DNA of 64,000 nucleotides, taken from the IMG/VR virus record IMGVR_UViG_3300049893_002799, positions 17,273 to 81,272 of that record; one strand, written 5' to 3'. A model generated the notes under the pieces. That model saw only the letters and a program-made list of their open reading frames with translations. It did no database searches and was not told where the DNA came from. The position numbers and the translations under genes are program-made. Below are positions 2,361 to 57,712 of this stretch, one piece after another (the stretch's first letter is position 1; each line of letters opens with the position of its first letter). Origin of the DNA: a virus.

Positions 2361-2436
2361 TGGTGCTCCCGACGGGACTCGAACCCGCATCTCTGACTTT
2401 TAGAGGGTCGTGTTTTAGCCATTAAACTACGGGAGC
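2361..2436 (-). tRNA. tRNA with anticodon CUA (amber suppressor type), encoded CCA
   Basis: 76 nt: GCTCCCG TA GTTT AATGGCTA AAAC A CGACC CTCTAAA AGTCA GAGAT GCGGG TTCGAGT CCCGT CGGGAGC A CCA; perfect acceptor stem, canonical D-loop GG and TTCGA; anticodon stem has two C.A mismatches. Confidence 0.85.
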
Positions 2437-2443
2437 AATATCT

Positions 2444-2779
2444 TTATACTAAAGGAAGCGATTTCAATAAGCTTTCTAGTGTTAGACCCCAAGCTGCTAT
2501 AGCTGTCTGCTGATTGCCGATATCTGGTTCATAGAATTCATTGTAAGAATTAGTTGTTGACTTTATTTTACTCGACCATTCTTGAAGTTGTTCAAGATTT
2601 CTCACTTTTAATAAGACAATAGTTTCATTTTTCCACAGCAACTGATCTTCACATTGACCGCACCGGCAAGGTATCCTGTTATCGTATAGCATGAATTCAG
2701 CTACCGCATGAGTAGCCTGAACTGCTTGCTGGGATTTTGACAAATCTCCGCGCACCAAGACATATAGCTTGTTAACCAT
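2444..2779 (-). CDS. peptidyl-tRNA hydrolase PTH2-like protein
   Basis: KLYVLVRGDLSKSQQAVQATHAVAEF ... W.NETIVLLKV ... FYEPDIGNQQTAIA pattern of phage PTH2-like proteins; start moved to the ATG overlapping the upstream gene end. Confidence 0.75.
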   Translation of the reverse strand: MVNKLYVLVRGDLSKSQQAVQATHAVAEFMLYDNRIPCRCGQCEDQLLWKNETIVLLKVRNLEQLQEWSSKIKSTTNSYNEFYEPDIGNQQTAIAAWGLTLESLLKSLPLV

Positions 2780-3071
2780 TTGATGCCTCAACTGATATCT
2801 CACTATATTCTTTCATTATAGAGTCTATAAGTGACCAGTTGGGTTCATTTCCCTCTTTCACCTTATTCTCTATTTGCTGATACTTTTTTCCACGAAGTAA
2901 GCAATAAGCAATATGGAGATGACGGTAATCACCTGCCGGTTTATTTCTAGCGAAGATATAATAGGTGTCCCACAGGATTTTGCCGCGCTGACAATCCTTG
3001 TAAAGGTGTTTTTCTGCACGAATAGAGAGAGCCAATTCTTTAAGACGATTTTTAAGTTCTTTGATTTTCAT
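2772..3071 (-). CDS. conserved phage hypothetical protein (RHLHIAYCLLRG motif), PTH2-like neighbour
   Basis: 99-aa ORF with GGAG SD; overlaps the PTH2-like start. Confidence 0.75.
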   Translation of the reverse strand: MKIKELKNRLKELALSIRAEKHLYKDCQRGKILWDTYYIFARNKPAGDYRHLHIAYCLLRGKKYQQIENKVKEGNEPNWSLIDSIMKEYSEISVEASNG

Positions 3072-3074
3072 ATG

Positions 3075-3157
3075 TTACTCCATTTATTAAGTTAAGATAC
3101 AAACTATATAATGGAGTAATGCTAGGGAGGTTTAAATATGGGGCGTATCTACATCAC
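3075..3157 (-). promoter_or_regulatory. candidate translational attenuator: amber-containing leader ORF plus SD-sequestering hairpin
   Basis: GTG ATG TAG ATA CGC CCC ATA TTT AAA CCT CCC TAG CAT TAC TCC ATT ATA TAG TTT GTA TCT TAA (3157-3092); 10-bp perfect inverted repeat 3110-3119/3075-3084 covering the GGAG SD of the gene starting at 3071. Confidence 0.55.
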
Positions 3158-3699
3158 TTCAGGATTCCTTTTTCTATATCTTTTAAGATATCGCTTATCT
3201 CTTCTTCATTGGGACCTTCGGGGAGAAGATCTCTCTTAGATTCTACCATGGTTTCTGGTTTTAAGAATAATTCGCGTTCTGCTTTTCGTCTGCGAACTAA
3301 ACCCGGCAATTCCTGTCCTTTTGACTTAGTCCACTTTAAGAACTCATCAGCTGCACTCTTATAGTCTAATACATTCAACTTCTTAAGAAGAGTCGAGCTT
3401 TTAAGGTTGCCTGTTCCACAGTTAAAAGCAAAGGAGACGAGCGCGGAGAATTGATTGGAGTTGAGAGGTACTTTAACTAACCCCTGAACCTCTTTTTCAA
3501 ATTTTGAAAGATGGAATTTAAGGAGTTCAGTGACTTGATCTTCTGTCATGGGAGGGTCAGTCATAGCAACTTTTCTACCATCTTGGTAAAAAGTAGCTCC
3601 CACACCGATAGTTGGAATGCCTACTGGATCTTTATATGGGGCTAGTCTAACCCCTTCAAAGTTCTTAATTAACTCAATACCTTCTTCATTGATCTTCAT
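3154..3699 (-). CDS. endolysin, GH24 phage lysozyme
   Basis: FEGVRLAPYKDPVGIPTIGVG (E-D-T triad), QFSALVSFAFNCG, LPGLVRRRKAE. Confidence 0.93.
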   Translation of the reverse strand: MKINEEGIELIKNFEGVRLAPYKDPVGIPTIGVGATFYQDGRKVAMTDPPMTEDQVTELLKFHLSKFEKEVQGLVKVPLNSNQFSALVSFAFNCGTGNLKSSTLLKKLNVLDYKSAADEFLKWTKSKGQELPGLVRRRKAERELFLKPETMVESKRDLLPEGPNEEEISDILKDIEKGILK

Positions 3700-3718: not shown

Positions 3719-3724
3719 ATTATA
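3719..3724 (-). promoter_or_regulatory. -10 TATAAT upstream of endolysin
   Basis: One of nine leader TATAAT boxes (also 25, 18307, 31255, 43557, 50255, 54463, 57752, 60485). Confidence 0.5.
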
Positions 3725-16666: not shown

Positions 16667-18280
16667 TCAACTATCCGATATCTTTGTGCCCTGAAACCAT
16701 GTATAGTGTTTTAAACCATGTATTGTAAAGGTCCCTGCAGAAGAGTTTGAATAACCGACTCCTACCTTGGTCCCTGCTGTCAAATACATTAGAACAGAAA
16801 CGTATATAGAAAAATCATCAGCCACACCTTTAGTATTCATGAAATAATGAGTGCCATATATTTCACCTGTATTATGGTTTCTAATATTTAAGGAACTATT
16901 AGAACCTGCTGCCATATTAACTAGCATATTTGTAGAAAATAACCAAGTACCAGTTGATGGTATTGTATACCCATTTGCAGAAAATCCACCCACATTATCA
17001 AAGGCAAAGCTACTTCCAAGTCCAAAGTCTACTGTTTGGGTTACACCAGCTCCCGTATAGGATCCGTTAACAGCATTTTTATCGACTCTAAAAGATGGCT
17101 TATCAACCAAAACCTGCTCACCCTGAAACATCTTACCGGATCTCTTGAACACCAAACTGGTATTAGAACTAAAACTACCGGGTACGAGCATGACTTGGGC
17201 GATATTAAAAGTAGTAGCAGATGTTGAACCCCAGTTTACTTGACTTGACGAACCAAGTGCTACAGCAGGACCGCCGGTTGTGGTCCATGCTCCAGGAGAT
17301 ATGGTGCGATTCGATCCAGCTGCTAGTATGAAAGAAATATCCAAACCTGTACCACTATCTAATAACCAGGTTCCAGAATTATCAGTAACGAAATCTATCG
17401 TTTTCTTTTCCCACGTGTTTGCTGCATTTATCGTGTAGTTGATAGCCATCGCGCGAGCATAATTGCTATTTCCTAGAGCAACTGAATACGTACCAGTAGT
17501 AGTAGATTTAACCCAAAACTGCAGTCTAACAGTCTGTGCATTGTGTATGGCCTGATATTCATATCCATCAACACGGTACGTGAGATATAGGTAGTCGTTC
17601 ACACCCGGAATAATCGCAGAGCCGGGTTTACTGATCGACATGCTGTATTGGCTGTTGAAACCAGACTGTGCAAAAGTTGGAACAGACGTGTCTCTGCTTA
17701 AAGTGAGTAAACTAGCGTATGCTCCGCTGAACCAAGTACGAAACTTGTCGGCGAGATAAACAGAACCTGTTGGGTTTACAGAAGATGTCCCGCGCTGCCA
17801 GTAGTCGAAGTTCCCGTTGATGATCAGGTTAGGGTAGTCATTGCCGAGCACGACACCCGTGATAGGCTGCGTAAAAATATTAGCGTTGATGCTGTCGATA
17901 CCTGGCTCAGTTGGGTTGATGCCTGTAGCAAAGTCTATGCTCGTGCTACCCTGAAGCGTCGTGAAAATACCGATAGGTTTGTATGATGTAAAACCAGTGG
18001 GTCCAGTAGAGATACCTGCTAAGCTTGCTACAAGCGCAAGATTTCCAGCAGATACTACCGCGTACACGTAGTAGGTTGAGTTAGCAGCGATCGAGCCGGT
18101 ATCGATGCCGTTGGCACCCGAAGCTGCGGTGCTCAGCGTGATTGTTGCGGAAGGAACGTACTGCTGGCCGCCAACGGTGACGCAGACCGGTTTCCCTGCA
18201 TTAGTTGCTGCTAGAGTAATACTAGTAGTACTAGCTTTCACTATATTTGGTATGTTGTCTGGTCTTAGTACCTGTCCCAT
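16667..18280 (-). CDS. tail fibre protein (NLIINGNFDYWQR domain + C1q-like C-terminus)
   Basis: GIDTGSIAANSTYYVYAV, NLIINGNFDYWQR; paralog of 13652-14839. Confidence 0.72.
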   Translation of the reverse strand: MGQVLRPDNIPNIVKASTTSITLAATNAGKPVCVTVGGQQYVPSATITLSTAASGANGIDTGSIAANSTYYVYAVVSAGNLALVASLAGISTGPTGFTSYKPIGIFTTLQGSTSIDFATGINPTEPGIDSINANIFTQPITGVVLGNDYPNLIINGNFDYWQRGTSSVNPTGSVYLADKFRTWFSGAYASLLTLSRDTSVPTFAQSGFNSQYSMSISKPGSAIIPGVNDYLYLTYRVDGYEYQAIHNAQTVRLQFWVKSTTTGTYSVALGNSNYARAMAINYTINAANTWEKKTIDFVTDNSGTWLLDSGTGLDISFILAAGSNRTISPGAWTTTGGPAVALGSSSQVNWGSTSATTFNIAQVMLVPGSFSSNTSLVFKRSGKMFQGEQVLVDKPSFRVDKNAVNGSYTGAGVTQTVDFGLGSSFAFDNVGGFSANGYTIPSTGTWLFSTNMLVNMAAGSNSSLNIRNHNTGEIYGTHYFMNTKGVADDFSIYVSVLMYLTAGTKVGVGYSNSSAGTFTIHGLKHYTWFQGTKISDS

Positions 18281-54776: not shown

Positions 54777-55421
54777 TCATATATCTACTTCAATATCGGT
54801 AGAATCGCTGCTCGCAAACAAGTCAACTTCAATATCGCCAATATCTAGGTACGGTGAAGCATCCCAGAAATTCTGAACAACACAGCGAAACCGTATTGTC
54901 CTAACCCACACATTGTCTGCCATTTTACTATTGTCGCGCAAGTTATCTGTTGCACTAAATGTCTGTAATTGCAGACCTAATCGCTCTGCCTGCCTCTTTC
55001 TCTTGAAGAGGATATAGTTGACTATGTAATAAAGCCACAGAGATTCATCGCTATTTTTAGGAGCCATTATGAGAACATCTAAGTTAACTACAAACGGACT
55101 TACTCCAACATCAGCCTCTTCACCCATGTCCCAGTGATCACCAATTGCAGCCTTACTCTCATCTTCCTGCTCTGAGGCTAACTTAATGGCGATCTGTGGT
55201 GCTTGCTGAGGATTCAGCGACCATGCCTGCACTACAGGAATCTCTGTCTCTAGAAACCATTTCTTTATATTATCAATATACTTAACGCCGTAGTCCCTAT
55301 TTATAGGCTCTACTGTGTAATACTGGAATATATCATTAAGTACAGCAGGGTTTTGCTTAACTATCTGCATTCCTTGCCATATCACTCTATGAAGAGCTAC
55401 TTGTGGTATTACGTGTGCCAT
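54777..55421 (-). CDS. tail completion/terminator-like protein
   Basis: PQIAIKLASEQE, LWLYYIVNYIL, WVRTIRF; position upstream of the sheath. Confidence 0.6.
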   Translation of the reverse strand: MAHVIPQVALHRVIWQGMQIVKQNPAVLNDIFQYYTVEPINRDYGVKYIDNIKKWFLETEIPVVQAWSLNPQQAPQIAIKLASEQEDESKAAIGDHWDMGEEADVGVSPFVVNLDVLIMAPKNSDESLWLYYIVNYILFKRKRQAERLGLQLQTFSATDNLRDNSKMADNVWVRTIRFRCVVQNFWDASPYLDIGDIEVDLFASSDSTDIEVDI

Positions 55422-56149
55422 TATGTTCTCACATATGATGAATAATATGAGTCTATTATATTACTTATACCCGCCAACGATGCATCGACCAGCTGGCGAT
55501 TTAAGTCTCTAATATAGTCTGTCATATCAGCTTGTTTGGCCGGAATTACCCAAGAAGTATGGGGATCCTGCTTATCCGAAGCAGTTCTGAACTCAACATC
55601 GCTACTTCTAGTACTTGTGGCTTGCTTGGATGTGTGTATCGCCCCTAGCTGTCGAGATAGATCTTCTCTAATTGCAGCAGCAACACCAAGTCGCTTATCA
55701 GCAGTATGCTTTCGCAAAGCATCTCTTGCCGCATCCTGCGCGTCTTTTCTAGCCTGCAGCATATTAAACATGCTTTGCTGGACCTGTACATCTTTTTTCT
55801 GCATAGGTATGACTTTATGACGACTACCATCTTTACTAACTTCAGCATTTTTCAACAAGTTCGGCAACATTTCCTGGGCATCTTTTGAGTAGTCTAAATT
55901 ACCAGAATGAGAGGAAATTGTATACACGCCGTTATAGTCAGGTAGTACCTGAATATCATCTACGAACTCATCTGCTCCAATCTCTAAAGCATAGTCTAAT
56001 GCAGAGCTGACATTATTAGAGACAAGCTCTACCAACATCTCATTTATATCGCCTAATAAGGCGTCACATATAGTTTGAGCTTCTTGACTGTCAGTGCCAG
56101 CGCGATAAAGGTCTGATCTAAATCTCTCTATCTCCAGCTGGATACTCAT
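55421..56149 (-). CDS. neck protein (Ne1-like)
   Basis: MLPNLLKNAEVSKDG.R.KVIP, FRTASDK...SWVIP motifs. Confidence 0.62.
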   Translation of the reverse strand: MSIQLEIERFRSDLYRAGTDSQEAQTICDALLGDINEMLVELVSNNVSSALDYALEIGADEFVDDIQVLPDYNGVYTISSHSGNLDYSKDAQEMLPNLLKNAEVSKDGSRHKVIPMQKKDVQVQQSMFNMLQARKDAQDAARDALRKHTADKRLGVAAAIREDLSRQLGAIHTSKQATSTRSSDVEFRTASDKQDPHTSWVIPAKQADMTDYIRDLNRQLVDASLAGISNIIDSYYSSYVRT

Positions 56150-56152
56150 AGA

Positions 56153-57712
56153 CTATCCTTTTTGCTTAACAACCTTGGCTCGCATGTCTTTTAAAAAGTT
56201 TTCGCGCTCCATTGCTGTCCACTCTGCACCAAAGGATATTTTGATGTGGCCGTCAGGGGAAATGTTTACTTCAGGTCGCGGCAGGTAGGAATAAAATTCC
56301 TCGTGAACTTTCTTATCATTCTTAGGTGAACCAGAATAAGCGTTTACAGAAACCGGCTGTCGCCCCATCTCGTCGATCTTCGTCTGAAGCTCTTTTAGCT
56401 TAGATTCTAATAGATCAACAGCATCACCAGCTTCCTGGCTAAGTTCATTATGCTTATCCACGATATCCATTACCGTGTCTTCTAGTTTATCGAACAGTTT
56501 CATCATCTTCTGTTCAACTTGCTGAAGATCTACCGCCATACCGTTGCGCATCTCTTCACGAATATTCTCCATCTCGGAGTATATACTAGAGATATTATGT
56601 TTTCTATAATTATCTACAAGTGAATTGAGTCCGCCGTTAATGGCGTCATCTGACAAGGAGGATTCGTCGAGTACCTCAAGCTCCTTCTCATCTTCAGGAG
56701 AATACCACTCGAATAAGCTCATCAGCTCCACCGCTACAGATGGTAGAGACTTGTTCGTGAATTGATGAACTTGTTTATGACCATCATCTACTCTGCCAGA
56801 GTACACGTCATTTGTATGCTTGCGAATATGTAGAGTGTAGTGGTCGATCTTGATATCTTTAAAATCTTCATCGCCCATGTCTTTAACAGCGTTCCGTAGC
56901 ATCCTGAAAGTGCCGTTTCCGACCATCTTCAAGGCATCACCGTGGGTAACTTCATAAACAGTGTTTGCCGGAGCGTTTCCAGAACGGATGATATTTTTCT
57001 GCAGCGACTCTACCGCCACCATCATCTGTAGTTCGCTGAATTTTGTCAGCTTCTCTTTAAATAGGGCTTGTATTGCATCACAAGTATAGTCTGTCAATTG
57101 ATCCCATGGTATGTCACTGATGTAGTGCCACTTGAGATTAGACATCTCGCTATTATTCTTAATCTTTCCTTTGAAAGACTTTACAAAGAATGTTTTGCTA
57201 TCATAGCCGCGATATGTTCGATGAAGCAGAGGGCGTGGGTCTCTGCCAACGATTCCGGCTTCTTCACGAAGTTCGCGAAGAGCACCTTCTTCAAATGACT
57301 CGCCATCTTCTACATGTCCACCAGGAGTTGCCCACAAACCATTATCTGTGCGTCGACCCAACAAGATCCTACCGTCACCGTCAACAACTAAGACTCCAGC
57401 TGCTTTACGCTGGTTTGATATTAGGAAATTCTCTAAGGCTTTATTCATCTTCTCGCGATCTTTAGCCTTCTTCTTCTTTCGCTCAGTTCGCTTCTCATCA
57501 ACGCGCTTCTTGTCGGCTTCATGGTGCTTCTCATCCCAGCGACCACCCTCGTGCGCCTTTCCTTTACTATCTGGTAGGTTGCCTGGTTTGGAGCCCGCAT
57601 ATTTTCCAGCAACAGACTTCGGAACTCGATCTCCTCGAGAAGAAGTACCCTCTTTGCCATGCAGGATGGCCATCATATAGCGGTACTGTCGTTTTGAAAC
57701 TGCAGCTGGCAT
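56153..57712 (-). CDS. Nudix hydrolase fusion protein in the head-neck module
   Basis: Nudix box GGHVEDGESFEEGALRELREEAG; basic N-terminus; coiled-coil C-terminus; ends in TAG. Confidence 0.85.
   Translation of the reverse strand: MPAAVSKRQYRYMMAILHGKEGTSSRGDRVPKSVAGKYAGSKPGNLPDSKGKAHEGGRWDEKHHEADKKRVDEKRTERKKKKAKDREKMNKALENFLISNQRKAAGVLVVDGDGRILLGRRTDNGLWATPGGHVEDGESFEEGALRELREEAGIVGRDPRPLLHRTYRGYDSKTFFVKSFKGKIKNNSEMSNLKWHYISDIPWDQLTDYTCDAIQALFKEKLTKFSELQMMVAVESLQKNIIRSGNAPANTVYEVTHGDALKMVGNGTFRMLRNAVKDMGDEDFKDIKIDHYTLHIRKHTNDVYSGRVDDGHKQVHQFTNKSLPSVAVELMSLFEWYSPEDEKELEVLDESSLSDDAINGGLNSLVDNYRKHNISSIYSEMENIREEMRNGMAVDLQQVEQKMMKLFDKLEDTVMDIVDKHNELSQEAGDAVDLLESKLKELQTKIDEMGRQPVSVNAYSGSPKNDKKVHEEFYSYLPRPEVNISPDGHIKISFGAEWTAMERENFLKDMRAKVVKQKG

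Follow-up and report, generated by a model that had tools for sequence, protein, structure and literature searches.

Background

In attenuation of the ermC/cat type, a short leader open reading frame (ORF) precedes the regulated gene, the 5' arm of a hairpin lies at the end of the leader and the 3' arm holds the Shine-Dalgarno sequence (SD) of that gene, which is freed when an antibiotic stalls the ribosome on the leader. RAPP-like arrest peptides (ApdA, ApdP, ApcA and SecM) use a regulatory pause to expose a downstream start, in a setting of sec/yidC genes and localisation signals (PMC10951233, PMC10987492), and the arrest motifs tested in the literature are RAPP, RGPP, RAGP, RAPG, HAPP, QAPP and similar (PMC10987492). 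In prfB, an early in-frame UGA with a +1 frameshift inside the regulated gene senses RF2 (PMC12421855), and in PepNL of E. coli, a tiny leader, tRNA readthrough of the stop codon cancels arrest there (PMC11890864). Synthetic leaders bearing a TAG, which work at the level of transcription through tna/trp leaders, render the output of the genes behind them conditional on an amber suppressor (reviewed in PMC6412442, section 6). Here we examine a natural leader in 64,000 nucleotides (nt) of viral DNA (positions 17,273 to 81,272 of IMG/VR record IMGVR_UViG_3300049893_002799; this whole stretch is called the window), in which a short frame interrupted by amber codons stands ahead of an operon encoding a 99-amino-acid (aa) protein, a Pth2-like protein and an amber-suppressor tRNA. 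Coordinates are positions in the window and all features of the locus lie on the minus strand.

In this paper we propose that the leader acts as a switch at the level of translation and responds to readthrough of UAG, a reading to which we give a probability of roughly 75%, and that the two proteins of the operon are probably made only when the leader stop is read through. To our knowledge, hardly any natural switch has been described for which the input is the decoding of a stop codon. An original prediction, made from the letters of the window, had pointed to such a leader and had described the downstream unit as a protein with the motif RHLHIAY, a Pth2-like hydrolase and a tRNA with a CUA anticodon; the downstream unit is as described, and every element was found on the minus strand with the positions and bases given there. 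The evidence from this locus alone is modest and the comparative evidence is strong, so that the case rests mainly on related loci.

Methods

Related loci were retrieved by means of protein alignments, of which that of the 99-aa protein returned 98 loci and that of the Pth2-like protein 75; scans of viral contigs with single proteins returned no loci, and it was the scans based on alignments that succeeded. The loci compared are mostly 30-50% identical to the locus studied here, and those of the closest homologues (57-79% identity) were left out. Conservation of the hairpin was assessed by comparing the duplex that each arm forms with its own SD to the duplexes that it forms with the SDs of other loci, in place of a rigid ungapped test of the pairs flanking CTCC/GGAG, which covered 15 loci only.

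Results

The leader frame (3092-3157) opens at ATG 3154-3152, which overlaps the stop codon of the lysozyme gene as TGATG, and continues with TAG1 (3149-3151, next base A), Ile-Arg-Pro-Ile-Phe-Lys-Pro-Pro, TAG2 (3124-3122), His-Tyr-Ser-Ile-Ile, TAG3 (3104-3106), Phe-Val-Ser and the closing TAA (3092-3094), with all three TAGs of the gap falling in this one frame. TAG1 is the proposed gate, on the strength of the sequence and of the family-wide match between stop and anticodon, and Pro-Pro (CCT CCC, 3130-3125) together with TAG2 forms the proposed pause site (3122-3130). An in-frame GTG at 3157, 8 nt past AGGA, may be the true start of the leader, with a peptide fM-M-amber, and this reading fits the commonest layout in the family, which has one sense codon before the TAG. 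A start codon, 0-3 codons, TAG, 3-12 codons and Pro-Pro-stop occur in this order at one site in the 81-kilobase (kb) contig (with GTG 3157 and ATG 3154 nested), where about 0.28 are expected on both strands. As in ermC/cat leaders, the short ORF lies directly 5' of the gene that it would regulate.

The order of 99-aa homologue, Pth2-like protein and suppressor tRNA holds in most related loci, and the leader is conserved with it. A start codon, 0-5 sense codons, an in-frame TAG and an end in Pro-Pro, Gly-Pro or Ser-Pro were found in 116 of 124 non-redundant loci, the commonest end being Lys-Pro-Pro (44/116), and many related leaders end in RGPP, RAPP, RSPP or RGP-stop. When the comparison is confined to the non-redundant Pro-Pro-stop loci, 56 of 57 have an in-frame TAG within 15 codons, as against 13 and 6 for the other frames, and in-frame TAA and TGA are depleted in these leaders. 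Examples are ML#IFKPP*, MT#KFKPP* and MK#IKIPP*, in which # is the amber codon and the closing sign the final stop; two ambers occur in many of the leaders, such as MH#VLGFT#VFKPP@, and others contain nested modules (for example ML#ILIFKPP#VLKPP*). The start is ATG in 65 of 84 leaders, an SD-like 4-mer precedes 47 of 68 leader starts, and the TAG is most often preceded by a single sense codon (41/68). Because all four proline codons and both lysine codons are used, conservation is at the level of the peptide. The base that follows the leader TAG is a purine (A or G) in 83 of 85 cases, and a purine after a stop codon favours suppression. Three in-frame TAGs had been singled out as a mark of this leader; they are all present here, and the third is no feature of the family.

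The tRNA with anticodon CUA (2361-2436), an amber suppressor, was identified with ARAGORN and scores 59.7 bits against the Rfam tRNA model; it begins 7 nt after the stop codon of the Pth2-like gene, has an encoded CCA and is the sole tRNA in the 81-kb contig. Its anticodon stem is weak, with a C-A mismatch, and its discriminator base is A73. Among the loci with a suppressor tRNA in the retrieved stretch, the internal stop of the leader matches the anticodon of the linked suppressor in 43 of 43, with no mismatches. Most telling for a gate that would follow the tRNA are the two non-amber cases, MKSHI-TGA-LVFIRGP* with a tRNA-UCA (locus L065) and MKKR-TAA-IAHTDRGPP* with a tRNA-UUA (L096). One further locus with a tRNA-UCA (L159), which has a TGA just before the start of its Pth2-like gene, was left out of these counts, as an ATG directly after the TGA makes it ambiguous.

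The agreement between gate and anticodon bears on the question of what the leader would sense. It could gauge the activity of release factors, or the general capacity for termination and elongation (RF1, EF-P, proline supply), with the tRNA a mere neighbour. The case of prfB shows that a release factor can be sensed by means of an in-frame stop placed early (PMC12421855). How much readthrough takes place is governed by suppressor and release factor relative to each other, two quantities that sequence cannot fully separate. Pauses at Pro-Pro are dependent on EF-P. A gauge of this kind is nevertheless unlikely, since the gate codon changes with the linked anticodon in every one of the 43 loci, the TGA and TAA cases included, since TAA is read by both release factors, and since the purine after TAG fits a context that favours suppression.

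The leader of this locus runs into a hairpin. Its anti-SD arm, TTACTCCATT (3110-3119), starts 3 nt after TAG2 and pairs perfectly over 10 base pairs with the SD arm, AATGGAGTAA (3075-3084), its exact reverse complement, in which GGAG stands 6 nt before the ATG of the next gene at 3071. A hairpin in which the SD can pair with a segment at the proposed stall site of the leader is present, as in leaders of the ermC/cat type. Across the family, pairing of the SD region with the 25 nt counted from the leader stop has a mean of -10.5 kcal/mol, compared with -4.9 for shuffled arms and -4.7 for random 25-mers (p ~2e-8 versus shuffled). The duplex of an arm with its own SD has -10.1 kcal/mol versus -5.9 with the SDs of other loci (z = -17.8), 0 of 2000 permutations reached the own-SD value, and in 47 of 77 loci the own SD is among the top 5% of partners. 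To judge from these duplexes, the hairpin is kept through compensating changes. The median distance from the leader stop to the first base of the anti-SD arm is 1 nt, and this spacing would place the start of the arm inside the mRNA channel of a ribosome with the stop in its A site, an argument that draws on the known size of the ribosome footprint on mRNA. The expectation that ATG-TAG, Pro-Pro and an anti-SD arm would be kept upstream of homologous genes was therefore borne out, by the 56 of 57 in-frame TAGs, by arms that fit their own SDs and by the close spacing of arm and stop. A diverged relative from another freshwater metagenome (run X3, with a piece over 3057-3109) has kept AAACCTCCCTAG and then TTACTCCAT, while 8 of 53 neighbouring bases differ.

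The segment between the two arms also holds TATAGT (3108-3103), which the original prediction had offered as an alternative, a promoter that bypasses the anti-SD arm. The downstream genes would then be expressed from a transcript free of that arm, and the leader would be irrelevant. The hexamer occurs 29 times on the minus strand, mostly within genes, and no sigma-70-like site was detected in the gap. Between leader stop and SD in 77 loci, moreover, there are 27 -10-like hexamers where shuffled sequences have 41.8 +/- 4.0, that is, they are rarer than by chance. The alternative could draw on the phage sigma factor, which has no match to region 4 and may use promoters consisting of a -10 element only, and on a TATAAT at 3724, upstream of the lysozyme gene; we consider it improbable all the same, and the prediction's loop promoter is not a conserved feature.

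The first gene behind the hairpin (2772-3071) encodes the 99-aa protein, which is all-helical and basic, carries the motif YRHxHIAYCLLRG (RHLHIAY here) and has 22 homologues. It gave no match in Pfam or PHROG; its model is helical, with a predicted local distance difference test (pLDDT) value of 89, and fold and Atlas searches with this model returned generic helical matches only and no informative fold. The second gene (2444-2779), the start of which overlaps the end of the first by 8 nt, encodes a 111-aa protein of the Pth2 fold. Its score against PF01981, 23.0 bits, equals the cut-off, its profile matches solved Pth2 structures (E = 3e-7), and its model (pLDDT 95.5) has a Foldseek probability of 1.0 and template modelling (TM) scores of 0.70-0.75 to archaeal Pth2 (2zv3, 1xty, 1rlk), so that it agrees with Pth2 in both sequence and fold. 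The catalytic residues of Sulfolobus Pth2 are Lys18 (of a G-K motif) and Asp86. In a profile alignment to 1xty, a nearly invariant Gln of the phage family aligns with the second Lys of K-G-K, the position of the catalytic Lys, and the family has an invariant Glu84 and Asp86 in an E-P-D-I-G segment. With Gln at the catalytic Lys position the chemistry may differ from that of archaeal Pth2, and the protein may be a Pth2-like enzyme of altered chemistry. PTH2 in jumbo phages was described by Iyer and colleagues, who proposed a role in ribosome rescue and made no link to suppressors (PMC7824862). In eleven loci (L008, L045, L047, L079, L092, L145, L149-L151, L155 and L163) the 99-aa and Pth2-like proteins are fused into one frame, and this fusion suggests that the two act together.

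Other layouts were found among the relatives. In one group the leader is extended and its stop overlaps the SD, an arrangement that points to translational coupling. Loci that are without the 99-aa gene have a Pth2-like gene that starts M-T-TAG-V, and in L104, L117, L124, L134, L135, L137, L138, L140, L144, L152 and L167 the Pth2-like gene has an internal in-frame TAG, at varying positions, with the family alignment continuing on both sides of it. As far as such arrangements can tell, there are at least three ways in which the 99-aa and Pth2-like genes are linked with readthrough. A separate observation concerns L048, L055, L056, L070, L087 and L091, in which the tRNA-CUA lies upstream of the leader; there the leader, MT#TGFT#..RGPPYY..., includes TTGACA-N17-TATAAT in nearly perfect form, and its stop overlaps the SD.

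The window belongs to a viral contig of 81 kb, the completeness of which is estimated at about half; identical copies are present in freshwater metagenomes of independent studies, and a megablast search against phage records gave no match. On the minus strand the order of genes is helicase, an 86-aa gene, lysozyme, a gap of 82 nt, the 99-aa protein, the Pth2-like protein, tRNA-CUA, a metallophosphatase and the sigma factor. The lysozyme gene (3154-3699; PF00959, E = 1.4e-45) ends in the TGA (3156-3154) that overlaps the leader ATG, and the TATAAT at 3724, immediately upstream of it, could be a promoter of the whole unit. The sigma factor (448-1134) has regions 1.2, 2 and 3, and no Pfam match to region 4. 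Under the standard code the contig has 76 genes with a coverage of 94%, which stop at TAA (47), TGA (21) or TAG (8).

These figures speak to a reading in which TAG is a plain sense codon of a recoded phage and the leader an ordinary proline-rich regulatory peptide. Recoding of TAG (code 15) is recognised by many TAG-interrupted genes and poor coding density under the standard code, and the contig shows neither: it is dense under the standard code, eight of its genes end in TAG, and no gene is interrupted by a TAG except for one in-frame pair of neighbours with separate homologues. In nearly every locus, too, the TAG keeps to one place early in the leader. Recoding is common among phages with CUA tRNAs (bioRxiv 10.1101/2021.08.26.457843; PMC13037316), and some of the related loci may be from such phages; recoded and standard loci could not be told apart by a ratio of ORF content with TAG as sense to that under the standard code. 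For the leader described here we regard this reading as very improbable. The neighbouring pair lies at 55421-57712 (minus strand), where TAG is the stop of a 519-aa NUDIX-domain gene and a 242-aa gene follows in frame one codon on, so that amber readthrough would yield a fusion of 763 aa. A conserved readthrough fusion was rejected here, as the homologues of both halves are separate proteins in a library search.

Discussion

The switch would work as follows. In the off state a ribosome, which may have terminated at the lysozyme stop and re-initiated, would start at GTG 3157 or ATG 3154 and would meet TAG1 immediately. When the release factor wins at TAG1, the ribosome would depart about 30 nt before the hairpin, and the 10-base-pair stem (3119-3110/3084-3075) would keep the SD of the next gene paired. 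In the on state the phage tRNA-CUA would decode TAG1, the peptide Ile-Arg-Pro-Ile-Phe-Lys-Pro-Pro would be made, and the ribosome would pause with TAG2 in its A site. The mRNA channel of the paused ribosome should hold about 10 nt past the A site; with the arm beginning 3 nt after TAG2, the stem would melt and the SD be set free. Were TAG2 to be read through as well, the ribosome would cross the arm as far as the TAA at 3094-3092 and the stem would open likewise. The 99-aa protein would then be translated, and the Pth2-like gene, with its overlap of 8 nt, probably by coupling.

Readthrough could also have the opposite sign and repress the operon, if a ribosome stalled on the leader stood in the way of initiation at the next gene. 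A stalled ribosome can cover a start site close by; the GGAG is 41 nt past TAG2, however, beyond the ribosome footprint, and the relatives with a TAG inside the Pth2-like coding sequence need readthrough for expression. Of all the explanations weighed here, repression is the one in which we place the least belief.

Several points weigh against a switch that is turned on by readthrough. The loci are related and the counts are hence not independent events. The fold of the 101-nt region is unremarkable (minimum free energy -13.7, z = -1.47). The matches of TGA and TAA gates to their tRNAs are one locus each, and in L052 the leader, which is in frame with the gene, carries a TAG where only a UCA suppressor is visible on a short contig. 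Pausing had been predicted at Pro-Pro followed by the second amber, and this site is present here; as a family trait it did not hold, with TAG after Pro-Pro being a local variant found in 4 of 57 loci. As TAG2 is itself an amber codon, the stall step is less clear-cut at this locus. Phe-Lys-Pro-Pro, finally, lies outside the tested arrest motifs (PMC10987492), so that a real pause at Pro-Pro-stop is assumed.

Taken with the homologous loci, in which the gate stop follows the anticodon of the linked suppressor, the reading of the leader as a readthrough switch nonetheless gains support, each of its steps being what we infer from sequence. As to what the switch is for, the two proteins might limit readthrough by way of the suppressor tRNA or might clear the peptidyl-tRNA and stalled ribosomes that readthrough produces, and we rate these options about equally. 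A more specific and tentative extension, which we think possible and on balance doubtful, is a closed-loop controller of readthrough: the leader would sense the suppressor tRNA, and the helical protein (as a binder of tRNA or ribosomes) and the altered hydrolase of the Pth2 fold would in turn act on that tRNA, with removal of its amino acid as one example, such that a phage with an otherwise standard code would keep its readthrough at a set level.

If the switch is real, it would show that phages keep watch on the suppressor tRNA that they encode and make gene expression dependent on it. This would give a handle on why phages with the standard code carry suppressor tRNAs and on how recoding phages time their change of code, and it would link two uncharacterised, widespread phage proteins to nonsense suppression. 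The leaders might also serve as compact parts for synthetic biology, with a gate some 65 nt long and responsive to suppression of UAG, UGA or UAA.

No description of such a leader was found in the full-text literature searched, the coverage of which leaves most subscription journals outside. With ermC/cat attenuation the locus shares the short leader ORF, a 5' arm at the end of the leader, a 3' arm with the SD and a paused ribosome that would free it; it differs in that the stall of ermC/cat is induced by an antibiotic, whereas here the pause site is reached only by decoding an early stop, and the proposed input is a tRNA and not a drug. With the RAPP-like arrest peptides it would share a regulatory pause that exposes a downstream start, and many relatives carry motifs of that class. 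The leader studied here has Phe-Lys-Pro-Pro instead, is about 10 residues long without a secretion signal, and stands before the 99-aa and Pth2-like genes and not before sec/yidC. With prfB it shares an early in-frame stop that would sense the efficiency of termination, but where prfB shifts frame inside the regulated gene, here the frame stays in phase through TAG to Pro-Pro-stop (56 of 57 loci), the leader is separate from the gene, and the stop matches a suppressor tRNA. PepNL is likewise a tiny leader, and what happens at its stop codon is decided by whether a tRNA reads it through, yet there readthrough cancels the arrest, and here it would be needed to reach the pause site. The engineered TAG leaders, in which downstream expression depends on an amber suppressor as proposed here, are synthetic and transcriptional, whereas the present leader is natural, linked to its suppressor and, as we read it, translational. 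The readthrough switch would thus be a variant of leader-peptide attenuation with a new input, nonsense suppression.
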